Shown here: in pieces, positions 17,364 through 54,834 of the stretch | How the letters are laid out: each line of letters starts with the position of its first letter | How positions within the stretch are numbered: position 1 is the stretch's first letter | Assembly: GCA_965197745.1 (NCBI GenBank) | Contig: CBDANS010000007.1 | Location: forward strand, 1,312,001-1,376,000 | Reading direction: 5' to 3' | Origin: Opitutales bacterium | GTDB lineage: Bacteria > Verrucomicrobiota > Verrucomicrobiia > Opitutales > PNEW01 | DNA length: 64,000 bases | Notes under the pieces: generated by a model | Database searches by the model: none | What the model was told of the DNA's origin: nothing | The model's input: the letters and a program-made list of their open reading frames with translations, nothing else | Made by a program: the position numbers and the translations under genes

Positions 17364-18714
17364 TGGAGTGACCCCCAAAAATGGTATCATTAACAGAGAG
17401 AGGTTATCGGGATAAACAGATAACCTCAATGAAAAGAAAAAGATATACAACAGAACAGATCATAGCAATACTGCGGCAGCCCGATACGGGCAAAACCGTG
17501 CAGGAAGTCTGCCACGGCAACAACCTAAGTGAACAGACCTTCTATCGCTGGGGCAAAAAGTATGGCAACTTGGAGCTGGCTGATGCGAAGCGATTTAAAG
17601 AGCTGGAAAAGGAGAATACGGAGCTGAAGAAGATGCTCGCTGATCAAATGCTCAAGCTTCGGGTGTTGGAGGAAACGCTCTCAAAAAAATGGTGAGCCCA
17701 AAGCAGAAGAAGCGAGCAGTAAAAGATGCGGCTGAGAAGGGGCTGTGCTCGTTTTAGAGGGCTTGTGCTTATCTCAGCCTCAGTTGGTCAACGTACAGCT
17801 ACCGACCCAAGCAGGCCAGTAAGAAGGCTCAGCAATTGGCCGAGCGGATTTTGACCTTGTCCTGGGAACATCCCCGTTACGGTTACCGGCGCATTCGTGC
17901 CTTGCTGGTGAAAGAAGGTTGGGCGGCAAGCAGGAAATTTGTACAGGCAGTGCGACGTTCTTCGGGCTTACAGGTAAAGCCCCCGAAAAAGCGTAGACAC
18001 CGTCAGGGGATCTCTACTGGGCTCCCTACTAAAGCAACCGGTCGCAATCACGTCTGGTCCTGGGACTTTGTCCATGATCGTACAGACAATGGCGGTATGC
18101 TAAAGATGATGACCTTGATCGATGTACCGAGGAGCTGAAAGCGACGACACTCAAGCGAAGCGAAGACATATACGCGTAAATGTTTACGCATCCGGGTAGC
18201 TCGACAGCTCACCTCAACCGATGTTCTCTCGGTACTCAGCGAAACCATCGATGAAGAGGGAGTTCCTAGCTATATCCGCAGTGACAACGGCAGTGTTCCG
18301 AGGAGCGAAGCGACGACATGCGAAGCCATTCATTGCTCATCAGGTGCAGCAGTGGTTGTCCGACAAAAAGATCAAGGCGATATATATCGATCCGGGCAGT
18401 CCCTGGCAAAACGGTTTCATCGAGTCGTTTCACAACCGCTTACGCGATGAGTGTTTGAACCGTGAAGTGTTGCTCAGCGTGGCTGAAGCGCAAGTGCTAA
18501 TAGAACAATGGCGTCAGACCTATAACAATGAACATCCCCACAGTCGATTAGGCTTTAAAAGCCCACAAGAGTTTGTCACATTCCTTTCCGCTCTTGGCCG
18601 CGTTCGGGCTACGCCCTCACTGCGCCAAGATCTCTCATATACATCAATCCTAAAACCATTAATACCCGGTAACTCTCTCACATAATAATTGGTACGAAAA
18701 ACGGGGTCCAATCA
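17364..18714 (+). mobile_element. IS3-family element, type 2, copy D (defective)
   Basis: TG...CA imperfect IRs; orfA from 17429 (MKRKRYTTEQ); A7 frameshift site; orfB with WSWDF, SDNG and PWQNGFIESF; TAG at 17755-17757 and two hairpin inserts. Confidence 0.95.
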
Positions 18715-25114: not shown

Positions 25115-25477
<363 letters not shown>

Positions 25478-25527: not shown

Positions 25528-26152
25528 ATGGCAAAACAGAGATTTAAAATCACCAAGTTTACCAACCCGGGTGGGTCAGAAGCCTGGCGCTTATCCGGCA
25601 CCCTAAACGGTAAGCAGATCCGGAAAAATTTCAAGTCCCGCAACGATGCCGTCGCCGAGCGTCAACGGTTATCGATCCGCTATTTAAACGAACAATCAGA
25701 AGGGCAGACGGTTTGGACCACCCTGACCCACGGGCAGAACAAAGAGGCTATTGCAGCTATTAATCTTCTTAAGCAAGCCAACTCCAGTAAGCCTCTCACC
25801 TTCGTGGTTAACTATTTTTTAGAGCATTATAAAGAAGCCGCTGAGACCATGACAGTCGAAGAGGCTATCCGGGAGTATTGCGATCATAAATCCAAGGAAA
25901 TGGAGCGTGGGATCATCTCCTATCGGCAGGAACGCGCCATTGCCTTGGAGATGAGAAAATTAAAGTGCTATTTCGCGGGGCGGATGGTGAATGAAATTCA
26001 ACCGGAAGAGCTTAATACATACCTCGACACACGACACGCTTGCTCAAGGGCAGTGCCTTCCCTTAAAACTTGGAATAACCGCCGTGGATACCTAAGCACC
26101 TTTTTCAAGTACTGTGTAGCGAAAAAATATGTGGGAGAAAATCCGATTCTGT
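25528..26152 (+). pseudogene. Tyrosine integrase N-terminal and core-binding part, truncated by IS3
   Basis: Starts 57 nt after the tmRNA 3' end; arm-binding-like N-terminus (GKQIRKNF) and core-binding KTWNNRRGYLSTFFKY...ENP; the catalytic domain is missing. Confidence 0.8.
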
Positions 26153-27470
26153 TGGTCGTGACCACGAAAACTGGTACACTTGAAAAGTTAGTCTGGGTAA
26201 CCTAGAAAGGACTCAGACAATGAAAGGCAAAAGATACACAACTGAAGAGAAAATACGGATGCTGCGGCAGGCGGACAAAGGGAAAACGATCCTGGAAGCA
26301 TGCCGCGAGAACAACATTAGCGAACAGACCTTCCACCGCTGGAAACGTGAGTTTGGGATGATTGATGTCAACCAGGCCAAGCGGATGAAGGAGCTCGAGA
26401 AGGAGAACGCGCGGTTAAAACGGATGCTGGCGGACAAGATGCTGGGGATAGAGATCCTGCAGGAGACCCTCGAAAAAAAACTGTAAGCCCTGGGCACAAG
26501 CGGCAAGTGGCAGAGAGACTTGTGACTCGGGGCCAGTGTTCGATGCGAGCGGGGTGCCGGTACTTTCGGCTGCACCGTTCCACCTATGCGTATAGGGCCA
26601 AGCATCCGGATGCCTGGCTAACGGAAACTAAAAGCGGCAGTAAGGCGGTTATCACGGCAATACGCGAGGTGGGGCTATCCCAAGATCACGAAGCTGTTGA
26701 AGGACGAAGGCTGGCAGGTGGGTAAACGTCTCGTGCAAGGTCTGCGACGTGAACTGGGTCTGGCGATCCCCCCACGCAAGCCAAGACGCCGGCGCAGGGG
26801 TGTCTGCACCGGGCTACCGACAAAGGCCGAACATCCCGACCATGTTTGGACCTGGGATTTTATCCACGATAAGACGGTCCGCGGTGGCAGTTTAAAAATG
26901 TTGACCGTGCTCGATGAGTACACCCGCGAGTGCCGGGTGATCCATGTTGATCGCCATATCAATGCGGAAACGGTGCGCGGTATCATGCAAAAACTGCTCG
27001 ACCGGCATGGGCCGCCAAAATATATTCGCAGTGACAACGGTTCCGTTCCGAGGAGCGAAGCGACGACATGCAAAGCCATTCATTGAAAAGGAATTGAGAG
27101 CCTGGCTAACTGCGATGAAAATCAAAACCCTCTATATCGAACCAGGAAGCCCTTGGCAGAACGGATACATCGAATCGTTGCATGCCCGTTTTCGCGAGGA
27201 GTGTTTAAACCGTGAACAGCTATGGACTTTGACCGAAGCCCGCGTGGTGATCGAGGACTGGCGCTGGCTTTACAATAATGTCCGACCCCACCGCAGCCTC
27301 GGCAATATCACCCCACGGTGCTTCGCTGAAGACATTAATACCGAAGGCTTGGGCTCCATTCGGGCTACGCCCTCATTGCGCCCAAGCCTTGACTTCCTCT
27401 ACCAACTTAACTTCAACATTAACCTCTCCAGACTAACTCTCTCGGTGGACCAGTTTACGTAACCCGATCA
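26153..27470 (+). mobile_element. IS3-family element, type 1, copy A (defective)
   Basis: IRs TGGTCGTGACCACG...CGTAACCCGATCA; orfA 26220-26486; extra G near 26623 and a 32-nt insert at 27046-27077. Confidence 0.95.
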
Positions 27471-28417
27471 CAGGTTTAGGCACCCAGTTGACAGATTGGC
27501 TCTTGTTTTCTGGTCTTGTTGAAATAGAGAAAGAATATAAGAAAAACAATTTCAGCAACGGTTTAGAGAGGACCGAGGATGGCGACATTATTCCTACCGT
27601 CCAGATTGGATTAGATTTCACCTTCACTGATTGGCTGGAAGCTGAATTTATTTATGAAGCTGAATACGACAGACGATTTAGAGATCAAATTGATGAAGGC
27701 CTGATCGCTTTGAATTTGGGGAAGTGGGGTGTGAATTTTGGCCGACAATTCCCCGCTTTTGGTGAATATTACAGTCACTTTGTCACAGGACCGTTACTGG
27801 AATTTGGCGAGATCCGTAAAACTTCTGTCATTGTCGATTATTCATTCAATGATCAGGTCGAAGTATCCGGCTTTATCTTTGAAGGGGATATTGATAAAGT
27901 TGGAAACTATAAAGAAAATGATTGGGGACTGAGCTTTGAATATGTTTCAGAGAATGAAGCTATTAGATTCGGTGCCAGTTATCTTTCTGACCTTGCGGAA
28001 ACCGATCAGAAGTTACTTGAAGAGGCCTTTAGCTATGAGCGACGGGTTTCGGGTTGGAGTGCTTATGCCCTGATGGGGATGAATGAATTTGAAGTGACCG
28101 CGGAAATTGTCCAGGCAACCGGTACCTTTGCGGAGTTTGATTCGAATGTTGATAAACCCTCTTCTTACAACATCGAGTTCGCTTATTTCCCAACCCAATC
28201 GATGCAAATCGCGATGCGCTTGGAAAATAGTGATGAACTGGAAGATGAGCCCGAGTGGCAGTATGGAGCTGCACTGACCTGGCGAATTGCCAACCTTTTC
28301 AATCTTACCGTGGATTACTTATATGGAGATTATAAAGATGGGTTTGTTCTTGATGATGATGACAACGAGTTGGATCACAGGCACCTGATTGCTGCCCAGT
28401 TTGCATTGGAATTTTAG
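27471..28417 (+). pseudogene. LbtU-like outer-membrane porin, 5'-truncated by IS3
   Basis: Acidic beta-barrel pattern, FGEYYSHFVTGPLLEFGE, C-terminal Phe (FALEF); no signal peptide and the frame is open to the IS end. Confidence 0.65.
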
Positions 28418-30329: not shown

Positions 30330-30415
30330 CGGTGATATCAAGACTTTCGACCGGATATCGCTCTTGCGGTGTCGATTAACTTAGAGTTATACCGGGAGAA
30401 AGAAAACATCCTGAT

Positions 30416-30445
30416 AAAATGGTCGGGCCGGAGAGATTCGAACTC
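30416..30445 (-). repeat. att-type direct repeat of the tRNA-Pro 3' end
   Basis: AAAATGGTCGGGCCGGAGAGATTCGAACTC, identical to 32705-32734. Confidence 0.92.
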
Positions 30446-32520: not shown

Positions 32521-32708
32521 ATGCGTTACTTGTTAGAGATGAAACTAAAGGTTAGAAAAAATCAGTAAACAGAGAAAATGCAACGCGTATTCTCTTCTCA
32601 CTTTTTGACTGTTTGACTATCGTCATTCGACTATGTTCATACGGTCGGTGGAGACCATAGTAGTTTGATAATAAGGCAAATAATTGGTAATAATCGCCTT
32701 GATAAAAA

Positions 32709-32785
32709 TGGTCGGGCCGGAGAGATTCGAACTCTCGACCCCTTGCACCCCATGCAAGTACGCTACCAGACTGCGCTACGGCCCG
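32709..32785 (-). tRNA. tRNA-Pro(GGG)
   Basis: Cloverleaf CGGGCCG...CGGCCCG-ACCA; anticodon arm CTTGC-AT GGG GT-GCAAG; TTCGAAT T-loop. Confidence 0.97.
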
Positions 32786-40653: not shown

Positions 40654-41939
40654 TGGTCGTGACCACGAAAACTGGTCCACTTGAAAAGTTAGTCTGGTCC
40701 AACTAGAAAGGACACAGACAATGAAAGGCAAAAGATACACGACCGAAGAGAAAATACGGATGCTGCGCCAGGCGGACAAAGGGAAAACGATCCTGGAAGC
40801 ATGCCGCGAGAACAACATAAGCGAACAGACCTTCCACCGCTGGAAACGTGAGTTTGGGATGATTGATGTCAACCAGGCCAAGCGGATGAAGGAGCTCGAG
40901 AAGGAGAACGCGCGGTTAAAACGGATGCTGGCGGACAAGATGCTGGGGATAGAGATCCTGCAGGAGACCCTCGAAAAAAAACTGTAAGCCCTGGGCACAA
41001 GCGGCAAGTGGCAGAGAGACTTGTGACTCGGGGCCAGTGTTCGATGCGAGCGGGGTGCCGGTACTTTCGGCTGCACCGTTCCACCTATGCGTATAGGGCC
41101 AAGCATCCGGATGCCTGGCTAACGAAACTAAAAGCGGCAGTAAGGCGGTTATCACGGCAATACGCGAGGTGGGGCTATCCCAAGATCACGAAGCTGTTGA
41201 AGGACGAAGGCTGGCAGGTGGGTAAACGTCTCGTGCAAGGTCTGCGACGTGAACTGGGTCTGGCGATCCCCCCACGCAAGCCAAGACGCCGGCGCAGGGG
41301 TGTCTGCACCGGGCTACCGACAAAGGCCGAACATCCCGACCATGTTTGGACCTGGGATTTTATCCACGATAAGACGGTTCGCGGCGGCAGTCTAAAAATG
41401 CTGACCGTGCTCGATGAGTACACCCGCGAGTGCCGGGTGATCCATGTTGATCGCCATATCAATGCGGAAACGGTGCGCGGTATCATGCAAAAACTGCTCG
41501 ACCGGCATGGGCCGCCAAAATATATTCGTAGCGACAACGGTTCCGAGTTTATTGAAAGCCAATTGAGAGCCTGGCTAACTGCGATGAAAATCAAAACCCT
41601 CTATATCGAACCAGCAAGCCCTTGGCAGAACGGATACATTGAATCGTTCCATGCCCGTTTTCGCGAGGAGTGTTTAAACCGTGAACAGTTATGGACTTTG
41701 ACCGAAGCCCGCGTGGTCATCGAAGATTGGCGCTGGCTTTACAATCATGTCCGACCCCACCGCAGCCTCGGCAACATCACTCCACGGCACTTCACTGAAA
41801 ACCTCAATACCGAAGGCTCGGGCTCCATTCGGGCTACGCCCTCATTGCGCCCAAGCCTTGACTTCCTCTACCAACTTAACTTCAACATTAACCTCTCCAG
41901 ACTAACTCTCCCGGTGGACCAGTTTGTGTAACCCGACCA
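40654..41939 (+). mobile_element. IS3-family element, type 1, copy B (apparently intact)
   Basis: 1286 bp; orfA 40721-40987; A8 -1 frameshift site; uninterrupted orfB to 41931 with WTWDF, DEYTRE, SDNGSEF and QNGYIESF. Confidence 0.97.
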
Positions 41940-44552
41940 CATATTCAGAAAAATATCGAGGATGGAATGCATCCTCATGAGGCTCGCACGGAAGCTTTGA
42001 AAAGATTTGGAGGTATAGAGCAGATTAAAGAAGAGTGTCGCGATGCTTGGGGGATACGAATGATGAACGATTTTATCCGAGACTTGCGACTGGGATTTCG
42101 CCAGGTAAATAGCCATAAACGTTATGCACTGGTTGTTGTACTCACGCTCAGCCTCTGCATCGGCGCGAATACGGCTATCTTCAGCATGTTAAACACTGCT
42201 TTGCTCAAGTCATATCCCTACCCTGAAGCTGGCAAGCTAGTCCGTGTCGTAACTGACCTCAACGATCAAGGACATCACAGAACTATAGAAGCCAACTCGC
42301 TACCTTCTTATTTTCGCTACCAGGAAGTCGAGTCCATCGCGGAATTGGGATTCTACCAAGGCAGCAGCAATATTATCACGCTCAAAGAAACAGCGGAATA
42401 CGTTAACGGAGTGCAGGTATCACCATCTTTTTTTCGCGTTCTTAATATACAACCGCTGCACGGTCGATGGTTTTACGATGAGGAAGGGGTAGACGGCCAA
42501 CATCTGGTGATCATTCTCAGCTATGCAATCTGGCAGTCGGTTTACAACGGCGATACTAATATCATAGGAAAGAACATCCAATTAGATGACGAGAATTTCA
42601 AAATCGTTGGTATCATGCCGGAAGGGTTTTATTTTATTTCCAAGGATGTTCGGTTTTGGCGCCCCTACCCGATTACTACTAACGTAAAGTCAGCGTCCCC
42701 ATGGGATTGGGAACATCTCAACTTTTTCGCTCGTCTCAAGCCGGAGGTTACCATTGAGCAAGCTCAATCCGAGTTAGATACGGTGGCAACCCGTATGGTT
42801 GAAGACTACCCGGAACACAGATCCTATGTTGAAGCCACCGGCTGGAGGCCACACCTGGTTAATTACCATGAACATCGCGTTGGGAATGCAAAGACCGTGC
42901 TCTACATGCTTCAGGGAAGCGCCTGGATAGTGCTCCTCATAGGATGCGTAAACGTCGCTAACCTGTCACTCACACGTGCCATCACCCGTACACGAGAACT
43001 TGCACTTCGCATCATGCTGGGAGCACGTATAGGCCGCATCGTCCGCATGCTTCTAACAGAAAGCTTTTTATACGGCTTGATGGGATGTGTGTTAGGACTG
43101 ATCCTAGCCTTTCTTGGCATAGAGCTTATCAGTACGTTCGGTCTTTACAGTTATCCACGCGATGAGTCGCTGAGTCTCGATACCACCGTACTTCTGTATA
43201 CTGTAACGATCTCTTTCTTATGCAGTTTTATTGTTGGTCTGCTGCCGCTTCTCTCGATCATGAAGGCAGACCTGGTTTCTGGCTCCCAAAGCGGTGATCG
43301 CACGACAACAGTTGGGTTAGGTGCTCAACGCATTCGCAGTTTTCTCATCATTGCCCAGATATCCTTGACCTTTATTCTACTCATTTGCTCTGCCCTCTTG
43401 ATTAAAAGTCTTACTGAACTACTCAAAGTTGACCCGGGCTTTAATCCGAAACGCGTTTTAACCGCCCGTATAAAGGCTTCCGATCGTTTCGAAACAAAGC
43501 AAATCAAGCAATATTTTTCTGGGCTTTTGGAGCGTATAAACCAGGTGCCGGGAGTCATCGCAGCTGGCACGAACGTTACATCGCCCTTTTTGAAAGCAGG
43601 TTGGTATAATTCATACCATATCGAAACCTATGACTATCAACCGGGAGAAGTTAACCAGAATTTCGCGACCAGCGTTGTAGATGGGCGCTATTTTGATGCC
43701 CTCGGATTGAATATCGTTATGGGCCGATCATTCGAGTTAACTGATCTGTCAGCGAATGCACATCCGGTTGTTGTCGTAGACAAGAACTTTGCCGATCTTT
43801 ATTTCCCTCATGGTGATGTAATCGGGAAACGGTTGACACGCGATGTCGGACCCGGATCAACCACCAGTGATAACCCAACCTGGTTTTCAATCGTCGGTGT
43901 GGTTGGCAACGTAAAGCAAAATAATTTATCGGAATCCGAAGAAAACCCGAAGCCACGCATCTACAATCTAGCCAGGGAAGGATACCCTCGTTACCAGCAA
44001 TTGATCATCCGTTTCGCGGATACTGACGATGTGGGAAATCCTCAATCTGAGGAAGCGATGATTGAGAGTGTAAAAGTTGCGATACGTGAATTTAATCCAA
44101 ATATCCCGCCTTACGACTTTCAAATGCTTGAATCACGCATCGACAGTACTTTAAATCAGAGAAGAGCGAGTATTCGCATCCTTCTTGCTTTTGCAGGTCT
44201 TGCTATCATTCTTTCGGCTGTCGGACTGTATGGTGTGATTTCTTATATCGTTGAGCAGCGCCGTAAAGAAATCGGTATTCGCTTGGCAATGGGTGCCCAA
44301 AGAAAAACCGTTATGCAGATGATCTTTAACCAAGGTATTAGACTAACTATTCTGGGATTGCTTATAGGCATATTCGGTGTCGCCGCTGCCAGCCAATTAA
44401 TCAGAAATCAGCTCTTTGAGGTAGAATCCGTAGATCCTCTGATCTACGCGTTGGTTGCTGTTCAACTTGCAATCGTTTCTTTTTTCGCTTGCTATCTTCC
44501 CTCACGCAAGGTGCTACGAGTAGATCCAATGACTGTCTTACGTTACGAATGA
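41940..44552 (+). CDS. ADOP-type duplicated MacB/FtsX ABC permease; extreme 5' end clipped by IS3
   Basis: EARTEALKRFGGIEQIKEECRD prefix domain, IGANTAIFS, LLIGCVNVANL, EIGIRLAMGA, VDPMTVLRYE; the frame is open to the IS end. Confidence 0.9.
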   Translation, partial: HIQKNIEDGMHPHEARTEALKRFGGIEQIKEECRDAWGIRMMNDFIRDLRLGFRQVNSHKRYALVVVLTLSLCIGANTAIFSMLNTALLKSYPYPEAGKLVRVVTDLNDQGHHRTIEANSLPSYFRYQEVESIAELGFYQGSSNIITLKETAEYVNGVQVSPSFFRVLNIQPLHGRWFYDEEGVDGQHLVIILSYAIWQSVYNGDTNIIGKNIQLDDENFKIVGIMPEGFYFISKDVRFWRPYPITTNVKSASPWDWEHLNFFARLKPEVTIEQAQSELDTVATRMVEDYPEHRSYVEATGWRPHLVNYHEHRVGNAKTVLYMLQGSAWIVLLIGCVNVANLSLTRAITRTRELALRIMLGARIGRIVRMLLTESFLYGLMGCVLGLILAFLGIELISTFGLYSYPRDESLSLDTTVLLYTVTISFLCSFIVGLLPLLSIMKADLVSGSQSGDRTTTVGLGAQRIRSFLIIAQISLTFILLICSALLIKSLTELLKVDPGFNPKRVLTARIKASDRFETKQIKQYFSGLLERINQVPGVIAAGTNVTSPFLKAGWYNSYHIETYDYQPGEVNQNFATSVVDGRYFDALGLNIVMGRSFELTDLSANAHPVVVVDKNFADLYFPHGDVIGKRLTRDVGPGSTTSDNPTWFSIVGVVGNVKQNNLSESEENPKPRIYNLAREGYPRYQQLIIRFADTDDVGNPQSEEAMIESVKVAIREFNPNIPPYDFQMLESRIDSTLNQRRASIRILLAFAGLAIILSAVGLYGVISYIVEQRRKEIGIRLAMGAQRKTVMQMIFNQGIRLTILGLLIGIFGVAAASQLIRNQLFEVESVDPLIYALVAVQLAIVSFFACYLPSRKVLRVDPMTVLRYE

Positions 44553-44987: not shown

Positions 44988-44994
44988 GGAATGT

Positions 44995-46312
44995 TGGTCG
45001 TGACCACGAAAACTGGTACACTTGAAAAGTTAGTCTGGGTAACCTAGAAAGGACTCAGACAATGAAAGGCAAAAGATACACAACTGAAGAGAAAATACGG
45101 ATGCTGCGGCAGGCGGACAAAGGGAAAACGATCCTGGAAGCATGCCGCGAGAACAACATTAGCGAACAGACTTTCCACCGCTGGAAGCGTGAGTTTGGGA
45201 TGATTGATGTCGACCAGGCCAAGCGGATGAAGGAGCTCTTTGAAGGAGAACGCGCGGTTAAAACGGATGCTGGCGGACAAGATGCTGGGGATAGAGATCC
45301 TGCAGGAGACCCTCGAAAAAAAACTGTAAGCCCTGGGCACAAGCGGCAAGTGGCAGAGAGACTTGTGGCTCGGGGCCAGTGTTCGATGCGAGCGGGGTGC
45401 CGGTACTTTCGGCTGCACCGTTCCACCTATGCGTATAAGGCGAAGCATCCGGATGCCTGGTTAATGAAACTGAAGGCGGCAGTAAGGCGGTTATCACGGC
45501 AATATGCCAGGTGGGGCTATCCGAAGATCACGAAGCTGTTGAAAGACGAAGGCTGGGAGGTGGGTAAACGTCTCGTGCAAGGTCTACGACGCGAACTGGG
45601 CTTGGCGATCCCCCAACGCAAGCCAAGACGTCGGGGCAGGGGTGTTTCCACCGGGCTGCCGACCAAGGCCGAACATCCCGGCCATGTTTGGACCTGGGAT
45701 TTTATCCACGATAAGACGGTCCGCGGTGGCAGTTTAAAAATGTTGACCGTGCTCGATGAGTACACCCGCGAGTGTCGAGTGATCCATGTTGATCGCCATA
45801 TCAATGCGGAAACGGTGCGCGGTATCATGCAAAAACTGCTTGCCCGTCATGGGCCGCCACAATATATTCGCAGTGACAACGGTTCCGTTCCGAGGAGCGA
45901 AGCGACGACATGCGAAGCCATTCATTGAAAAGGAATTGAGAGCCTGGCTAACTGCGATGAAAATCAAAACCCTCTATATCGAACCAGGAAGCCCTTGGCA
46001 GAACGGATACATCGAATCGTTGCATGCCCGTTTTCGCGAGGAGTGTTTAAACCGTGAACAGCTATGGACTTTGACCGAAGCCCGCGTGGTGATCGAGGAC
46101 TGGCGCTGGCTTTACAATAATGTCCGACCCCACCGCAGCCTCGGCAATATCACCCCACGGTGCTTCGCTGAAGACATTAATACCGAAGGCTTGGGCTCCA
46201 TTCGGGCTACGCCCTCATTGCGCCCAAGCCTTGACTTCCTCTACCAACTTAACTTCAACATTAACCTCTCCAGACTAACTCTCTCGGTGGACCAGTTTAC
46301 GTAACCCGATCA
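44995..46312 (+). mobile_element. IS3-family element, type 1, copy C (defective)
   Basis: Same IRs as copy A; a GA-to-TTT change near 45239 fuses orfA into the orfB frame early; 32-nt insert at 45888-45919. Confidence 0.95.
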
Positions 46313-46416: not shown

Positions 46417-47767
46417 TGGAGTGACCCCCAAAAATGGTATCATTAACAGAGAGAGGTTATCGGGATAAACAGATAACCTCAATGAAAAGAAAAAGATATA
46501 CAACAGAACAGATCATAGCAATACTGCGGCAGCCCGATACGGGCAAAACCGTGCAGGAAGTCTGCCACGGCAACAACCTAAGTGAACAGACCTTCTATCG
46601 CTGGGGCAAAAAGTATGGCAACTTGGAGCTGGCTGATGCGAAGCGATTTAAAGAGCTGGAAAAGGAGAATACGGAGCTGAAGAAGATGCTCGCTGATCAA
46701 ATGCTCAAGCTTCGGGTGTTGGAGGAAACGCTCTCAAAAAAATGGTGAGCCCAAAGCAGAAGAAGCGAGCAGTAAAAGATGCGGCTGAGAAGGGGCTGTG
46801 CTCGTTTTAGAGGGCTTGTGCTTATCTCAGCCTCAGTTGGTCAACGTACAGCTACCGACCCAAGCAGGCCAGTAAGAAGGCTCAGCAATTGGCCGAGCGG
46901 ATTTTGACCTTGTCCTGGGAACATCCCCGTTACGGTTACCGGCGCATTCGTGCCTTGCTGGTGAAAGAAGGTTGGGCGGCAAGCAGGAAATTTGTACAGG
47001 CAGTGCGACGTTCTTCGGGCTTACAGGTAAAGCCCCCGAAAAAGCGTAGACACCGTCAGGGGATCTCTACTGGGCTCCCTACTAAAGCAACCGGTCGCAA
47101 TCACGTCTGGTCCTGGGACTTTGTCCATGATCGTACAGACAATGGCGGTATGCTAAAGATGATGACCTTGATCGATGTACCGAGGAGCTGAAAGCGACGA
47201 CACTCAAGCGAAGCGAAGACATATACGCGTAAATGTTTACGCATCCGGGTAGCTCGACAGCTCACCTCAACCGATGTTCTCTCGGTACTCAGCGAAACCA
47301 TCGATGAAGAGGGAGTTCCTAGCTATATCCGCAGTGACAACGGCAGTGTTCCGAGGAGCGAAGCGACGACATGCGAAGCCATTCATTGCTCATCAGGTGC
47401 AGCAGTGGTTGTCCGACAAAAAGATCAAGGCGATATATATCGATCCGGGCAGTCCCTGGCAAAACGGTTTCATCGAGTCGTTTCACAACCGCTTACGCGA
47501 TGAGTGTTTGAACCGTGAAGTGTTGCTCAGCGTGGCTGAAGCGCAAGTTGTAATAGAACAATGGCGTCAGACCTATAACAATGAACATCCCCACAGTCGA
47601 TTAGGCTTTAAAAGCCCACAAGAGTTTGTCACATTCCTTTCCGCTCTTGGCCGCGTTCGGGCTACGCCCTCACTGCGCCAAGATCTCTCATATACATCAA
47701 TCCTAAAACCATTAACACCCGGTAGTTCTCCCACTTAAAATTTGATACGAAATACGGGGTCCGATCA
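46417..47767 (+). mobile_element. IS3-family element, type 2, copy E (defective)
   Basis: Near-identical to 17364-18714 except the last ~55 nt; same TAG and the same two inserts (47178-47220, 47349-47380). Confidence 0.95.
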
Positions 47768-49715: not shown

Positions 49716-51956
49716 ATGAAAAAGTCGCTCGCTTTATTTCTACTCGTAGTCTCATTCAGTGTTTCTGCTATTCTTAATGCACAGCCCGAATCACTCGATA
49801 CTTTATATGATTTTGAGAATATCACTGCCGATGGATCAGACTTCACTATCGGGGAAGCACCTTTTACCATCCGGGTCATTGGTTATACGCTGCAAGATGT
49901 AGAGAACCCAACTCTTGCTCACTCAGGTAATCGGGCGCTGGTCCTTGATCCCTCCGCCCCTGAACATAAAATATTATTCGAAAGAGGCGTCAACCTGCTT
50001 CAGTTTTATGCCGTCGACACCGCGGGCGGCAGTAAAATAGAACTCAGAGATAAAAATTTTATTTTTCTGGCTGATGAAGGTGTGGTCAACGGTTTGCCGA
50101 CCACGCACGGTCTGCAAAGTTTTGTCTCTTTCAGCGGAGATATCCAGGATTTAACGGATCTTAATTTTACTAACGGGATAAAAGAAATTAAACTCGTCAA
50201 TCCCGGTGGGCAAGTTGCAATCGATGACCTGGGTTTTACTTACGTCGAAGGGCCGCCGAATAATACGGTGTACGAGGATTTTACGGATTTAAATAATCAC
50301 CCGATTTTTAAAGATTTTTCTAAGCGAGCCAATTTTACTTTGGGAGTATCCCCATATTCTGCGACATTTACCGGTGGCATTGTAGCACCTACTGATTTCC
50401 CCTTGTATACTTTTGAACATACCAATCCTTTACTGGTAGATCAGGGAGGTTCAGGGTCCTGGTCGATTGTAAATGATACGACGTCAAACCAGACTCCGGA
50501 TCCGGCCGTGGGAATGATCGTCTTTGAAACCCCCGTTGTGCAGGTGCAATTTTATGCCGCTGTTTTTTTTGAGAACGATGGTGTCATTGATGTTTTCGAT
50601 ACCGAAGGAAACCTGCTTACGACGACTGATGACGTCCCGCTGAATATAAATATTGGTTACGAGGGAGATTTTACTTATTTCGATTTCAACGCGGCGGAGT
50701 TAGGCGCAGCCGGTGGGATAGGGAGTGTCCATTATACGAATACCCCATTTATCGGGGATACCGGAAGTATTCCTCAGATTAGTCTCGATGATATCGGGTT
50801 TACCCCTATCGGCGCGCCCGGAAGTGGTAACGAAGGACCGCCTCCAGTTCAAGGTCCGACAATTACTACCCAACCCACGAGCCAGGAAGTGCAGTCCGGT
50901 ACCGCTATAGCACTAACAGTCGCCGCCAGCGGTGATGATCTTGCTTACCAGTGGTATACTGGTAACAGCGGTGATACCGCTAACCCCGTCGCCGGCGCCA
51001 CCGACAGCACGCTAACCACCGGCGCCCTTACCGCGAGCACGAACTACTGGGCGCAGGTAACCAATGCCAGTGGCTCCGCTGACAGCGATACTGCGGTCAT
51101 CACCGTGTCAGCGCCTTCCATACCCCTCGTCCTTGACGGCTCAGGAGATATCGCCGGGGAAGACATTCAGCATGCCAACGGCAACGTCTTCGACCAGATA
51201 TTACTCACCGGAGAGTTCGTCCAACTCCAGGCCAAACCGGGACAGATCACCCGCGTTTCCTTCATGGACGAAAACGAGGACATTGTGCAGGTAGAATTCT
51301 CAGGTAACGGTACCTTTACCGTAACCCTCGACCCGGCCACTTTCCTGCCTCCGGCCGTCCCCCCGCGCTACAACCAGCAGGTTGAGTACGTGACGGGCAA
51401 GCCAAGCGTGATCATCGACGGAGCAGACGCCAATACCTTCTTCAGCATCTTCACGGTGGGAAGGATCAACGCCTTTAACCAGGCGCTGTTCCCCGAGGGA
51501 CAGGTCTATGACGCTCAGGCCGATGTGGCCCTCGTAGAAGTAGTCAACTCCACGGGACTGGGAGGGGTACAGTTATCGAATGCCGTATTCAGTGGAAGCA
51601 CGGGCAATGTCGGCTTCGATGCACGCGGCGTACCGATCGCGGTACGCTTAACGGTGGGCGACATCGACGCCGATGGAGATGCGGTGCCGCATCTCCTGTT
51701 CGGAGAAGGGTCCTTCACAGTGCCGGCAGGCAATCCCGGCTTGCGAATCACCGGAGGTGACCTCTTGCAGACGAACGGCGCTGCGGTCGTCGTCGCCGAG
51801 AGTGGTTCAACCACGACCGGGTTTGAGACCCTGATCACCCAGAACAACTTCAAGTCTGACGAAACGCCTCAGCCGACACTGAGCATCGATGCCACCTTCG
51901 CCAACGAAGACGGGGATGCGATCGAGGTTACAACAGAGGAATTGACGATCGAGTGA
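49716..51956 (+). CDS. Secreted acidic surface protein: two beta-rich repeats + Ig domain + conserved C-terminal domain
   Basis: Signal peptide; two QFYA...DD(L/I)GFT repeats; PTITTQP...YQWY...YW Ig-like module; C-terminal domain shared with the next gene. Confidence 0.8.
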   Translation: MKKSLALFLLVVSFSVSAILNAQPESLDTLYDFENITADGSDFTIGEAPFTIRVIGYTLQDVENPTLAHSGNRALVLDPSAPEHKILFERGVNLLQFYAVDTAGGSKIELRDKNFIFLADEGVVNGLPTTHGLQSFVSFSGDIQDLTDLNFTNGIKEIKLVNPGGQVAIDDLGFTYVEGPPNNTVYEDFTDLNNHPIFKDFSKRANFTLGVSPYSATFTGGIVAPTDFPLYTFEHTNPLLVDQGGSGSWSIVNDTTSNQTPDPAVGMIVFETPVVQVQFYAAVFFENDGVIDVFDTEGNLLTTTDDVPLNINIGYEGDFTYFDFNAAELGAAGGIGSVHYTNTPFIGDTGSIPQISLDDIGFTPIGAPGSGNEGPPPVQGPTITTQPTSQEVQSGTAIALTVAASGDDLAYQWYTGNSGDTANPVAGATDSTLTTGALTASTNYWAQVTNASGSADSDTAVITVSAPSIPLVLDGSGDIAGEDIQHANGNVFDQILLTGEFVQLQAKPGQITRVSFMDENEDIVQVEFSGNGTFTVTLDPATFLPPAVPPRYNQQVEYVTGKPSVIIDGADANTFFSIFTVGRINAFNQALFPEGQVYDAQADVALVEVVNSTGLGGVQLSNAVFSGSTGNVGFDARGVPIAVRLTVGDIDADGDAVPHLLFGEGSFTVPAGNPGLRITGGDLLQTNGAAVVVAESGSTTTGFETLITQNNFKSDETPQPTLSIDATFANEDGDAIEVTTEELTIE

Positions 51957-51981
51957 GGAATGATCTATCGATCAGTTTTAG

Positions 51982-52408: not shown

Positions 52409-54625
52409 ATGACTAATTATAAATTTTTGAGCGCAGTAATAGTTTTCTTAGGATTAACGGTTCAATTGTCAGCCCAACCTGAATCACTTGATACTTTTTT
52501 TGATTTCGAGAATGTCACGGGTGAAGGGCCAGAATTTATAATAGGGGAATCCCCTTTCACGGTCCGTATTATTGGATTTACTTTACAGGATGTAGATCCC
52601 GGCCTTGCTCACTCGGGTAACCGGGCCCTGGTTCTCGATCCGAGTGCACCTGACCATAAGATATTATTTGAAAGAGGGGTATATGAACTTCAATTCTATG
52701 CTGTCGATACCTTGGGAGGAGGAAGGATCGAAATTAGAGAAAGACATTTTCGTGATTTAAATCAACAAGGCGTAGTCAACGGCTTGACGACCAGCCCTGG
52801 TCTACAAAGTTTCGTCTCCTTTAGTGGAGATGTCCTGGATTTATCAGATTTGAATTGGACGAATGGGATGAAAGAATTAAAAATTATCAATCCTGCCGGA
52901 CAAATAGCGATTGATGACCTGGGATTTACTTATGTTGAAGGGCCACCAGATAATACGATATTTGAAGATTTTTGGTTTTTTTTAGAGCGTGCTGAATTTT
53001 TATTCCCAACTGGGAGTCGAACGGATTTCATCATTGGTTTTCCACCTTACACCGCGCACTTTACGGGCGGTGTCATCACGGGGGGGTTACCCGCTTATAA
53101 TCACTCCTTACCTGGTGGGGGTGGGCATTGGGCAATTGTCCAGCAAGAGATCTCCGGCCAACCGGTTCAAGAGATTACAGGAGTCATTGAATTTGAAACC
53201 CCGGTTGCTCAGTTACAGTTCTACGCCGCCATATTTTTTGAGGATGATGGCTTTATTGAAATCTTCGATACAGAAGGGAACCTGCTTACAGCAACCGACG
53301 ATATCGGCATGAATGTAAGTGTAGAATTGACTCAAGCTTTTACTTATTTCGACTTCAATGCAGTGGAATTAGGGGCCCCCGGTGGCATTGGTAGTCTACA
53401 CTATACGAACAGGACGATCACCTCTACTACGGGGAATGTTGATAGCATCGGAATTGACGACATCGGGTATACTCCCATCGGTGCCCCCGGCAGTGGTTCC
53501 GAGGGACCACCCCCCTGTCTCGGGTCCCTCCATCACCACCCAACCGTCGGGCCAGGAAGTGCAGTCCGGCACGGCGGTGGTTTTATCCGTTGTAGCCAGC
53601 GGCGATGATCTTACCTATCAATGGTATACCGGCACCAGAGGCGACAGCGCCAATCCCATTGCCGGCGCTACGGGAAGCAGCCTGACCACCGGTGCTCTCA
53701 CCGTGAGCACCAACTTCTGGGCACAGGTTAGCAATGCCGGAGGAACAGCCGATAGTGATACTGCGAGCATTACGGTGACAGTCCCTGCGGTCCCCCTTGT
53801 CCTTGAAGGTTCGGGCGATATCGCCGGAGAGAATATCCAGCATCCTAACGGTAATGTATTCGACCAGATTCTGTTAACCGGGGAGTCCATTCATCTCCAG
53901 GCCAGGACGGGACAAATCACTCGGGTCTCCTTCATGGACGAAACCGAGGACATCGTGCAGGTCGAGTTTTCAGGCGCAGGGACCTTTACCGTTACCCTCG
54001 ACCCGGCCAGCTTCCTGCCCCCGGCCATTCCCCCACGCTACAACCAGACAGTCGAGTACGTGACGGGCAAGCCCAGCGTGTTCATAGAGGGAGCCGACGC
54101 GAATACCTTTTTCAGTATCTTCACGGTAGGGAAGATCAACGCCGTGAACCAGGCCCTGTTCCCAGAAGGACAGGTCTATGACGCGGAAGCCGATGTGACG
54201 CTGGTGGAAGTGATCAACTCCACAGGAATGGGAGGAATGCAACTGTCGAACACTGTTTTTTCAGGAAGCACGGGGAAAGTCGGAGTGGATGCACGAGGAG
54301 TGCCCATAGCAGTACGATTAACGACAGGCGACATTGATGCGAGTGGGGACGCGGTACCGCACCTCCTGTTTGGTGAGGGATCCTTCACGGTGCCCGCTGG
54401 TAACCCCGGTTTGCGGATCACGGGAGGAGACCTGGAACAGACAAACGGTGCCTCAATCGTGATCGCAGAAAGTGGATCGACGACCCCGGGTTTGAGACAT
54501 TGATCACGCAGAACAATTTTAAATCGGATAACACCCCTCAGCCGACACAGAGTATTGACGCAACCTTCGCCAATGAGGATGGTGATGCGATCTCCGTCAC
54601 TGTTGATGAAGTGACAATTGAATGA
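52409..54625 (+). pseudogene. Tandem paralog of 49716-51956 with two frameshifts (about 53513 and 54489)
   Basis: Collinear homology across three frames; ends ...VTVDEVTIE* at 54625; both shifts lie in C or G runs. Confidence 0.85.
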
Positions 54626-54834
54626 GGAATGATCTATCGATCAGTTTTAGGTGTTAAGTTTTAAGTGTTAAGTGAATAGGTGGAACGTGCTGTCCTCCAA
54701 CCAGGATATAACTTTCGTATCGCTCTAAATTTTCTTTCTTGTGTATTTTGCGCGTCTTGCGTTGCTTAGAAATAGTTTCGCATCAGTGAAGTAGCATCTG
54801 GTAGTTATTTTAATCTACTCCAACATTCAATACT

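Follow-up and report, generated by a model that had tools for sequence, protein, structure and literature searches.

The question raised by this locus is what kind of element sits at one and the same codon in transposase genes of two different IS3 types, and where it came from. The window, that is, the whole 64,000-nt stretch of DNA analysed, contains five IS3-family copies, and the short insert in question, c1, is carried by four of them. The relevant features are as follows.

17364..18714, plus strand: IS3-family copy D (type 2), carrying c3 and c1
18125..18168, plus strand: c3 in copy D, 44 nt TACCGAGGAGCTGAAAGCGACGACACTCAAGCGAAGCGAAGACA, at the Glu codon of L-I-D-E-Y-T-R; net gain of 42 nt, in-frame TGA
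18296..18328, plus strand: c1 in copy D, 33 nt (TTCC...GCCA) in place of AG, at the Glu codon of D-N-G-S-E-F
26150..27472, plus strand: IS3-family copy A (type 1), a recombinant, B-like left of the insert and C-like right of it
27046..27078, plus strand: c1 in copy A, GCAAAGC variant, located by core scan and alignment
40654..41941, plus strand: IS3-family copy B (type 1), without insert; OrfB intact, 307 aa
41546..41547, plus strand: empty c1 site of copy B, the AG of GAG in GGT TCC GAG TTT
44992..46312, plus strand: IS3-family copy C (type 1), carrying c1
45888..45920, plus strand: c1 in copy C, located by core scan and alignment
46417..47767, plus strand: IS3-family copy E (type 2), carrying c3 and c1
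47178..47221, plus strand: c3 in copy E, located by comparison of the IS copies and public contigs
47349..47381, plus strand: c1 in copy E, located by core scan and alignment of the IS copies

The original prediction had placed the insert at four positions and none in copy B, and this was confirmed by the core scan and by the alignment of the five copies. The 20-mer core of the insert matched the window four times (18299, 27049, 45891 and 47352), all on the plus strand, with an expectation of 0 from 100 shuffles. In the five-copy alignment, copies A, C, D and E all contain the 32-nt block, where copy B has a clean gap. Each insert had been described as holding two GCGAAGC motifs, one of them mutated in copy A, and the alignment indeed gave GCAAAGC in place of the second motif of that copy. 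GCGAAGC itself was over-represented (22 observed versus 8.6 +/- 2.6 expected). Comparison of filled with empty sites further agreed with the absence of a target duplication, the net gain of 31 nt and the frameshift that follows from it. The proposed replacement of the middle A of GAA did not hold, as the empty sites read GAG in copy B, in a relative's type-2 copies and in public contigs. Restated from these empty sites, the event is the replacement of AG by 33 nt ending in A. The empty form of the copy D site is GGCAGTG-AG-TTCATTG, which was seen in the relative's type-2 copies and at a contig joint (47348->47382). For copy E, an empty variant was found in public contigs (run X1, depth 280), and for copy C a contig joint (45887->45921; runs X18 and X20) skips 33 nt and has AG instead.

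Copies D and E are 99.1% alike. Between type 1 and type 2, the match is confined to about 200 nt around the insert (76%), where identity is complete over 14 nt on the left side of c1 and 8 nt on its right side, and the terminal repeats of the two types differ. Copy B does carry the only intact OrfB of the window, as had been claimed, but the whole genome holds four identical empty copies with an intact OrfB.

Both type-2 copies also contain c3, a second, related 44-nt insert overlooked in the original prediction; its empty form GATGAATATACG was present in public contigs (joint 47177->47221). Altogether, five related modules of 28-44 nt, c1 to c5, were found at five fixed points of IS3 transposase genes, namely D-N-G-S-E-F (c1), R-L-R-D-E-C (c2), L-I-D-E-Y (c3), a site in orfA (c4) and P-W-Q-N-G (c5). 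They are purine-rich and share the core YCGAGGAGC-(3-6 nt)-GCGACGACA-(1-5 nt)-GCGAAGC. All five lie on the coding strand, and a target duplication was found at none. One or two target bases are lost, exactly two (AG) at c1 and c2. The common target is ^A-R-T, mostly preceded by G; the exceptions are c5, which entered after C, and c4, which entered after A and in another codon phase. The 5' flanks vary (CCG, GTG, ATG and GGC). Such a target is too short to account for insertion into IS3 only. With regard to the reading frame, c1 (+31 nt) and c2 (+35 nt) cause a frameshift, with the same core read in different frames, c3 and c4 bring in an in-frame TGA, and c5 (+42 nt) keeps the frame open. Judging from these frames, c1 to c4 would disable the transposase and c5 would leave it readable.

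Presence/absence polymorphism was observed at every OrfB site (c1, c2, c3 and c5), and both the filled and the empty state of c4 occur in related genomes. Public contigs contained empty c1 and c3. They also yielded a filled c2 site with its AG replaced and, at the c5 site, an insert of 43 letters that is of c5 type; the read evidence on filled and empty states is that of assembled contigs only. Intact empty proteins were represented by P0006, P0007, P0026, P0030, P0034 and P0042, and intact empty type-2 genes occur in related assemblies. Because in-frame pseudo-revertants exist, namely P0013 (1-nt loss) and P0036 (21-nt remnant, 42 member sequences), the modules appear to harm the IS. It should be added that the filled and empty states were deduced by comparison, and no gain was caught in progress.

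The view of the insert as a non-autonomous micro-insert selective for IS3 transposase genes was borne out by a motif scan of the whole genome, in which 116 of 137 core-motif matches fell within IS3 loci. Outside these loci, three matches were tRNA repeats and about 16 belonged to a generic hairpin repeat, the rest being due to chance. The genome has about 114 IS3-like loci, and IS3 genes make up an estimated 3% of it, roughly. At least one module was present in 74 of its 82 long IS3 loci (c1 in 71, c3 in 32, c5 in 10 and c2 in 9), in 10 combinations including the empty state. Genomes G032 and G060 added 21 type-2-like loci with 7 further combinations, 12 of these copies carrying c4 and c3 with an empty c1 site. 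Hence, at least 17 combinations of five modules at five sites in three genomes point to more than one ancestral event. The 32-mer was present in 3 of the 401 Opitutales genomes searched, and the hosts are one family of marine Opitutales bacteria. At the protein level, 19 candidates had words in common with the c1 region, and 12 of them had a c1-coded tail (11 with VPRSE(A/T)TTC and a shifted form in P0013), the other 7 being empty or unrelated, and the c5 peptide recurred in about 21 clusters among 5.8 billion proteins searched. The literature searched contained no description of such inserts.

The original prediction had taken the insert for a hairpin element. The sequence d(GCGAAGC) is unusually stable, and standard folding parameters may underrate its mini-hairpins, a limit that applies to all z-scores obtained here (+0.6 to +1.5). 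By nearest-neighbour folding, the insert had no excess structure over shuffles (DNA z +1.1, RNA z +0.6), so its predicted fold does not set it apart.

Its core sequence is that of the arm which interrupts the T-loop (TTCG^AAT) of RtT-like tRNA-linked repeats (TLRs), both here and in other phyla. In c1, c2 and c3, three blocks follow one another in a common order, TWCCGAGGAGC, GCGACGACA and GCGAAGC, as they do in the arms of this genome's tRNA-Asn and tRNA-Gln repeats; a double change of G-C to A-T in c2 (GGAAC..GTGAC) preserves a small helix. The repeats at C6:355520, C6:355618 and C5:236520 each lie behind a tRNA gene and end in the last 18 nt of that tRNA. Their layout is as in E. coli rtT units (an inverted T-arm copy, GGTTCG, the arm, then AATCC and the tRNA 3' end), and their closing stem covaries with the adjacent tRNA. 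Arms with the core were also found behind tRNA-Ser, tRNA-Arg, tRNA-Met, tRNA-Leu and tRNA-Cys genes in other families and phyla. The match of the tRNA-linked units to Rfam RF00391 is weak (23.7 bits, E 0.013, and 18 bits, where the cut-off is 45), and Rfam returned no family for the IS region at E <= 10. A second weak RtT match, at C7:528179, was ordinary coding sequence and was dropped. By position, the IS3 insert is not itself a TLR: it sits inside OrfB, without tRNA-derived flanks.

The footprint at the IS3 sites is also that in T-loops, X^A-R-T becoming X[module]A-T. Similarly, the tRNA-Asn pseudo-copy of G060 reads GCAGGTTCG[arm]ATCCTGC, which is the same footprint in a true T-arm. No target base is lost at the E. 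coli arm and at the arm of one Puniceicoccaceae repeat, and the flanks of c2, c3 and c5 have no homology to T-arm flanks. The original prediction had missed this identity with the tRNA-linked repeat arm, which changes the kind of element under discussion. The distribution suggests that the direction was from tRNA repeat to IS3.

On balance, we think it probable that a module family at home in the variable arm of TLRs entered IS3 transposase genes at no fewer than five points, by insertion at the DNA level. The first entries would have been made by a trans-acting enzyme that normally works on T-loop DNA, and disrupted copies would have been mobilised in trans by intact ones. Because no intact type-2 copy was found in genome G000, movement in trans has to be assumed for about 24 type-2 copies, which form two 97%-identity clusters, and for diverged single copies as well. 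A wider proposal, which we hold as doubtful, would make the variable arms of TLRs, for which there has been no explanation since 1978, the cargo of a DNA insertion system not recognised so far. This system would act at T-loop-like ^ART sites and, in this Opitutales family, would have turned to IS3 transposase genes as a 33-44-nt 'transposon killer', entering at conserved codons and then spreading among the IS copies with the help of homing-like patch repair.

As for the enzyme, none that could mobilise the insert is encoded in the 64,000-nt window, in agreement with the original prediction, and the analysis as a whole turned up no inserting enzyme. In G060, two tandem 397-nt units stand behind tRNA-Asn, each with a 93-aa GIY-YIG gene (PF01541, E 4e-16) followed by the tRNA pseudo-copy with the arm in its T-loop. 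Of 10 loci with more distant GIY-YIG homologues, 3 have a tRNA or tmRNA gene at a distance of about 550 nt or less. Four homologues in G000 are 37-42% identical; two of them have stops, and none is at a tRNA repeat with this arm. The GIY-YIG gene in the tRNA repeat is, by its position, a lead to the putative inserting enzyme. Co-occurrence with HUH enzymes, which had been suggested as a check, was not discriminating: PF01797 (Y1/HUH) has one match in G000 (C6:163380), and also matches in G001, an Opitutales genome which lacks the 32-mer and has no inserts. The module ends (5' TTCCGAGG, 3' GCGAAGCCA) form no terminal inverted repeats, their reverse complements mismatching; genome-wide motif scans revealed no parent IS with such ends, and the IS3 terminal repeats are unlike them. 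A MITE reading was rejected, as the module has neither inverted ends nor a target duplication nor a parent IS.

How c1 came to be in so many copies is a separate matter. Ordinary homologous recombination had been called a poor explanation. A filled B-type copy equals the empty B across the whole IS except for the insert and AGTTT->ATTC, and it keeps the B-like state at diagnostic sites on both sides, 14 nt away on the left and 12-14 nt away on the right. The alignment shows that c1 moved within type 1 by conversion of a 36-56-nt patch, with the next codon (TTT->TTC) co-converted. Chimeric ISs combine a type-1 left half with a type-2 right half, and their junction is exactly at the insert. In addition, because clean 4-bp duplications flank 12 of the 63 c1-bearing copies with both ends found, disrupted copies must have transposed. 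These three routes, conversion of patches, recombination at the insert and transposition of copies already defective, partly explain the spread among IS copies and types, and c1 could be in both types without having been inserted independently in each. Spread of one insertion by a short conversion tract, which had been raised against the prediction, is true of c1 within type 1 and fails for five modules at five sites. Since only conserved motifs permit patch exchange between types, part of the site choice may reflect spread, not entry. A four-gamete argument in B-type copies was dropped, its second marker being a 2-column variant that is possibly slippage-prone.

With such spread, one accidental insertion per site might have sufficed without any selection of sites, conversion tracts at conserved motifs and IS amplification having done the rest. 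The patch transfer within type 1 with its co-converted TTT->TTC, the chimeras joined at the insert, the identical 14 nt and 8 nt beside c1 in both types, and the location of every site in a conserved motif are all in line with this. However, five founding accidents would be needed, all in IS3 genes at roughly 3% of the genome, all on the coding strand and all by one family otherwise at home in the T-loop; the footprint, moreover, matches a real T-arm, and the c2, c3 and c5 flanks are not homologous to T-arm flanks. We therefore regard an accidental origin as rather unlikely. It is unlikely, too, that the modules are repair scars. Here a nuclease, the small GIY-YIG protein being a candidate, would make cuts leaving a 2-nt overhang at G^AG^T sites and at sites resembling a T-loop, and a TLR arm fragment would be captured there; later breaks in empty copies would be mended from filled ones, which amounts to a homing-like drive. 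Loss of exactly AG at c1 and c2, the short co-conversion tracts, the GIY-YIG genes beside the T-loop arm in the G060 tRNA-Asn units and the 3 of 10 distant-homologue loci near tRNA or tmRNA genes would fit. So would P0024 (32 member sequences), whose c1 site is joined to its c2 site as GTG-AG-TGT, as expected from ligating two AG overhangs, although a 5-nt repeat, TGAGT, explains this junction equally well. The GIY-YIG link is one locus, however, and the G000 homologues, with their low identity and stops and their absence from arm-bearing tRNA repeats, argue against it.

Two further accounts concern what the modules do. Recruitment of the tRNA-repeat machinery by the host against IS3 transposases, kept for limiting transposition, seems quite improbable to us. 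The modules fall in essential motifs, 74 of 82 long IS3 loci are hit with four identical intact copies remaining, and RUP offers a precedent in inactivating transposase genes of more than six IS families, according to a review (PMC2229807). Yet about 114 IS3-like loci remain and disrupted copies have still transposed, which means poor control, and a dedicated gene was not found. Highly improbable is the idea that modules are removed or bypassed in expression, by RNA splicing or ribosomal recoding, so that transposase is still made. It has some appeal, as all 27 G000 loci counted as c3+c1 have both modules and nevertheless include two main clusters of 14 and 10 near-identical copies, one A for each module would give most copies full-length frames, and c3 is identical in 44 of 44 positions between IS lineages only 86% alike. 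A look for excision in DNA and RNA, as originally advised, gave no RNA-only form in the contigs of two metatranscriptomes (runs X18 and X20): filled c1 is present in them (X18 records 10 and 14), and the sole empty RNA form is of type 1, for which empty DNA copies exist. Stretches that these contigs leave uncovered were disregarded. Between c1 and c2 the frame in which the core is read differs, the pseudo-revertants P0013 and P0036 speak for the frame being important, related assemblies contain intact empty type-2 genes, and the IS region has no Rfam match. Translational bypass and +1 frameshifting were rejected, as inspection by eye around c1 and c2 revealed neither a matching pair of take-off and landing codons nor a known frameshift site. 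Also rejected were a hammerhead, a bulge-helix-bulge intron and an integron attC, whose defining motifs were absent by eye, in addition to the empty Rfam result.

If the entry of TLR arms into IS3 genes holds, long-unexplained TLRs gain a testable activity, in which the arm moves into other DNA with a defined footprint. It would also be a case of natural disabling of transposase genes at fixed conserved codons by 28-44-nt inserts; to our knowledge, the modules are shorter than any described bacterial mobile repeat. As filled and empty sites occur naturally for the four OrfB modules, and c4 in both states, laboratory testing is possible. For annotation, the inserts make IS3 genes resemble frameshifted pseudogenes or odd-length proteins, and they act as recombination joints producing chimeric IS elements.

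Several known systems resemble the modules in part. IS200/IS605-type elements, PATEs and REP/RAYT insert precisely without target loss at a 4-5-nt target and have clear subterminal hairpins. Like them, the modules have no target duplication, a fixed orientation with respect to a short target immediately 5' of the insertion point, a very small size and small potential hairpin motifs; they are strand-specific as well, but lose 1-2 target bases, and their 5' flanks vary. Homing elements are group I introns and inteins with GIY-YIG or other endonucleases, which occupy a conserved site of a conserved gene and spread to empty alleles with short flank co-conversion. Filled and empty B-type copies differ by just such a 36-56-nt co-converted patch including TTT->TTC, and the GIY-YIG gene in one related tRNA repeat is a parallel, whereas the module is 33 nt long and gene-less, and its host gene is not rescued by splicing. 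Translational bypass elements, as in phage T4 gene 60 and the mitochondrial 'byps' of Magnusiomyces, are likewise short (27-55 nt) mobile inserts in coding sequence, but the modules lack matched take-off and landing codons and stand in different frames.

RUP of S. pneumoniae, as a review describes it, is 107 bp long, has terminal inverted repeats and a TA duplication, is tied to IS630-Spn1 and inactivates transposase genes in many places; Correia elements occur in Neisseria transposase genes (PMC2229807). Like the modules, RUP is a small non-autonomous repeat that inserts into IS elements and inactivates their transposase genes, and it raises the same question of a limit on IS load. Compared with RUP as reported there, the modules are only 28-44 nt long, lack inverted ends and a duplication, replace 1-2 bases and are restricted to five codons of one IS family. 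A further comparison is with the TLRs, which include RtT/rttR of E. coli, Rfam RF00391 (PMC8144298). Nothing in the literature searched describes TLRs as donors of inserts; a mobilome preprint mentions no more than coverage of rttR, and the CoCoNuT preprint, in its current version, does not treat RtT. Like the tRNA-side relatives of the insert, they stand behind a tRNA gene, share 18 nt with its 3' end and have the T-loop split by an arm, and the RtT consensus has GGAUGAGAAC and GCGAAGCG in common with those relatives; the IS3 inserts, in contrast, are the arm alone, inside protein-coding genes.

The insert was found at all four predicted places in the window: its core 20-mer occurs four times, always on the + strand, and not once in 100 shuffles. 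In a five-way alignment of the IS3-family copies, A, C, D and E share it as a clean block of 32 nt where B has a gap, and a second related insert (c3) was observed in both type-2 copies.

IS3 copies and related inserts in the window (IS limits from self-comparison)
17364-18714: IS3 copy D, type 2
18125-18168: second insert (c3), 44 nt, copy D, at the Glu codon of L-I-D-E-Y-T-R
26150-27472: IS3 copy A, type 1
40654-41941: IS3 copy B, type 1, intact OrfB (307 aa)
44992-46312: IS3 copy C, type 1
46417-47767: IS3 copy E, type 2
47178-47221: second insert (c3), 44 nt, copy E, at the Glu codon of L-I-D-E-Y-T-R

Copies D and E are 99.1% identical, while the similarity between the two types is confined to about 200 nt around the insert (76%). 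Comparison of filled and empty sites confirmed the net gain of 31 nt without target duplication. The original prediction had placed the insert in a GAA codon; the Glu codon is indeed the site, but the empty sites read GAG, so that 33 nt with a final A stand in place of AG. The motif GCGAAGC is over-represented in the window (22 observed against 8.6 ± 2.6 expected), but nearest-neighbour folding of the insert gave no structure beyond that of shuffles (DNA z +1.1, RNA z +0.6). The label "hairpin" is therefore owed only to the special stability of d(GCGAAGC).

The same footprint, X^A-R-T to X[module]A-T, was common to a series of related modules, which always lie on the coding strand and never carry a duplication. 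For c1, the 33-nt insert, the type-2 empty form is GGCAGTG-AG-TTCATTG in a relative against GGCAGTG[33 nt]TTCATTG in this genome (G000). Contigs from public sequencing runs gave a type-1 empty joint 45887->45921, where AG replaces the 33 nt (runs X18 and X20), a TAG variant at the type-1 site (run X2), and a type-2 empty joint 47348->47382 (run X1, depth 280). In such public contigs the c3 site has the empty form GATGAATATACG, c2 is present with 37 nt in place of AG at 47503-47504, and c5 with 43 letters in place of one A of CAA at 47461.

Modules in IS3 transposase genes: net gain, effect where listed, site, and number of G000 loci
c1: +31 nt; D-N-G-S-E-F; 71 loci
c2: +35 nt; R-L-R-D-E-C; 9 loci
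c3: +42 nt, in-frame TGA; L-I-D-E-Y; 32 loci
c4: +27 nt, in-frame TGA; orfA of copies in the relative G060
c5: +42 nt, frame open; P-W-Q-N-G; 10 loci, as CCCTGGC[43 nt]AAACGG

The G000 assembly (4.45 Mb, 45% G+C, 7 contigs), in which the window spans C7:1312001-1376000, carries these modules in most of its long IS3 loci. A tblastn search with the copy B OrfB returned 114 IS3-like loci, and 74 of the 82 longer than 850 nt hold at least one module: c1 alone (35), c3+c1 (26), c3+c1+c5+c2 (4), c1+c5 (3), c5+c2 (2), and c1+c2, c3+c1+c2, c3+c1+c5 and c2 alone (1 each). Four of the 8 empty loci are identical intact B-type copies; copy B is the only intact OrfB within the window, as had been noted, but not genome-wide. 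Some type-1 copies carry a 415-aa stop-to-stop frame across orfA and orfB and others one of 354 aa (C4:137214 versus C7:1353008), a difference that tracks a variant of two alignment columns lying some 800 nt upstream of the insert.

A whole-genome scan placed 116 of 137 core-motif matches in IS3 loci; the others comprised three tRNA-linked units, a generic hairpin repeat that shares the core (about 16 copies), and chance matches. The generic repeat, GTCATTGCGAGGAG-N4-GCGACGAAGCAATCC(AGG...), lies outside IS3 and tRNA contexts (for example C7:1024184, C7:1046762, C6:1404210 and C4:3509), often with a second hairpin 3' of it, and matched no Rfam family.

A single insertion spread by a short conversion tract had been named as the case against a site-selective element, and within type 1 this is what c1 displays. 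Ten filled copies of the B type are identical to empty B across the whole IS, save for the insert and an adjacent AGTTT->ATTC change, and the sites that distinguish B from C are still B-like at 14 nt on the left of the insert and at 12-14 nt on its right. Hence a patch of 36-56 nt came from a C-like or A-like donor. Chimeric elements were joined exactly at c1, being type 1 on its left and type 2 on its right in the relative G032 (L129, L135 and L141) and the reverse in G000 (C7:1673753 and C6:203682). Both ends were located for 63 c1-bearing copies, and 12 of these, 6 per type, are flanked by clean 4-bp duplications, so disrupted copies have transposed. Module c3 is 44/44 identical across IS lineages only 86% alike overall, which means recent exchange or constraint.

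The module states at each site are independent. Among 21 type-2-like loci of G032 and G060, seven combinations were counted: c4+c3 with the c1 site empty (12), c3 alone with c1 empty (2), c1 alone with c3 empty (2), c1+c5 with c3 empty (2), c3+c1 (1), c3+c1+c5 (1), and c4+c2 with c1 and c3 both empty (1). Protein records P0011, P0012, P0014 and P0018 lack c3 and carry c1, while P0026, P0030, P0034 and P0042 are intact, empty and 306-307 aa long.

Each of modules c1 to c4 either breaks the frame or brings in a stop codon. In-frame pseudo-revertants suggest that the IS is under pressure to restore its frame: P0013 has c1 minus one base and reads VPRAKRRLAKP, and P0036 (313 aa, 42 member sequences) keeps a 21-nt remnant reading VPRSEAS. 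Proteins of 321-323 aa that are complete in other respects (P0046 and P0142) contain c5 translated as LPSEATPQR(A/V)(I/K)ARIT, and about 21 clusters hold this peptide. Replacing each module by a single A gives full-length frames in most copies; this is expected too from near-identical recent copies and proves little. In assembled contigs of two metatranscriptomes, not a strong test, no RNA-specific empty form was seen. Both IS types occurred in filled form (X18 records 10 and 14), and an empty form only for type 1, which also has empty copies in DNA. Splicing finds no support in these contigs.

The blocks TTCCGAGGAGC, GCGACGACA and GCGAAGC also stand in the same order directly behind tRNA-Asn (twice) and tRNA-Gln in G000. 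Each unit runs from a stem complementary to the tRNA T-stem through GATGAGAAYC...GRTTCG, a variable arm and ATCC to the last bases of the tRNA, and the stem covaries with the tRNA (GGCAGGATG/CATCCTGCC versus GGCTAGGATG/CATCCTAGCC). A weak Rfam match to RtT (RF00391) was obtained on 251 nt, at 23.7 bits and E 0.013 where the cut-off is 45 bits, with GGAUGAGAAC and GCGAAGCG..AUCC as the common aligned blocks. The E. coli rtT units match this design, having an inverted T-arm copy ahead of GGTTCG, an 84-nt arm, and AATCC plus the tRNA-Tyr 3' end. These are the tRNA-linked repeats of E. coli, which number 22 at ten loci; three of them bind Hfq and CsrA, and the others have no known function (PMC8144298).

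The 32-mer was present in 3 of 401 Opitutales genomes searched, namely G000 (73 matches) and G032 and G060 (12 and 14), which both belong to another genus of the family that includes G000. A species-genome scan returned at least 116 stretches, mostly chance coding matches. Among the matches listed, core-bearing arms lie beside tRNA-Ser, tRNA-Arg, tRNA-Met, tRNA-Leu and tRNA-Cys genes in Puniceicoccaceae, Woeseiaceae, Coraliomargaritaceae and others, and none lies inside an IS3 gene. A tRNA-Asn pseudo-copy in G060 holds the arm in a true T-arm, GCAGGTTCG[arm]ATCCTGC, with one A of TTCGAAT lost, which is the IS3 footprint; a palindrome stands in place of its anticodon arm. We conclude that the IS3 inserts are tRNA-linked-repeat arms that entered transposase genes, the direction being inferred from the distribution, because arms are widespread while IS3 inserts occur in only these three of the Opitutales genomes searched.

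A further tRNA-end-like fragment, with a c4-like arm, lies at C7:941234 of G000. In the surrounding 1-kb locus (C7:940800-941800, - strand), which has no tRNA gene, a fragment like the type-2 IS left terminal repeat, TGGAGTGACCCCAAAATATTG, stands about 40 nt before the orphan unit. A repeat starting GGGGTC followed by TACCGAGGAGCGGATGCGACGACACCTCAACGAGCATAGCGAGAATAAC, whose start resembles c5, was seen at loci L012, L025, L042, L046, L076 (OZ252288.1) and L098, one copy lying about 90 nt behind tRNA-Cys.

No mobilising enzyme was found in the window, in agreement with the original prediction. Among the enzymes named there for co-occurrence, HUH does not discriminate: a Y1 transposase homologue is present in G000 and also in G001, an Opitutales genome without a 32-mer match. 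A GIY-YIG gene does lie beside the arm in G060. At C1:397708-400722 (about 1100-2330 of the locus, - strand), two 397-nt units lie in tandem behind a tRNA-Asn, and in each a 93-aa GIY-YIG gene (PF01541, E 4e-16) precedes the arm-bearing pseudo-copy. Distant homologues turned up at another 12 places, spread over four genomes; of the 10 of these loci scanned with ARAGORN, 3 have a tRNA or tmRNA gene no more than about 550 nt away. The exact loss of AG would be consistent with a 2-nt staggered cut. So would a precise c1-site-to-c2-site deletion in P0024, a type-2 transposase with 32 members (..SDNGSE|CLNREV.., joined as GTG-AG-TGT), although a shared TGAGT repeat explains it equally well. GIY-YIG is a candidate inserting enzyme, a lead and not a finding.

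Several other features of the window were recorded. Behind a tmRNA gene (25115-25470) lies an open frame (25528-26205) that extends into IS copy A and appears cut by the left end of that IS at about 26150. A 35-nt direct repeat of 97% identity (30412-30445 and 32700-32734) overlaps tRNA-Pro (32709-32785, - strand) at the 3' end of the gene and resembles the termini of an integrated islet of 2.3 kb. Neighbours of about 1.46 kb (50523-51981 and 53192-54650) are 76% alike and, with a further similar pair (49779-50267 and 52472-52957), make up a tandem pair of diverged paralogous genes.

The closest printed idea is RUP of pneumococcus, a MITE of 107 bp by which transposase genes from more than six IS families are inactivated (PMC2229807). 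The modules are not MITEs, as inverted ends, duplication and a parent IS are all absent; neither do they behave as precise IS200/IS605 insertions or as bypass elements, and with homing elements they share only a conserved target and flank co-conversion. The best explanation is a composite one, towards which we lean slightly, its weakest step being the first entry into IS3 genes. In the literature covered, mostly outside subscription journals, we found no description of tRNA-repeat arms inserted in transposase genes. We rate the modules as a known kind, a small repeat disabling IS elements, with an unexpected link to tRNA-linked repeats.
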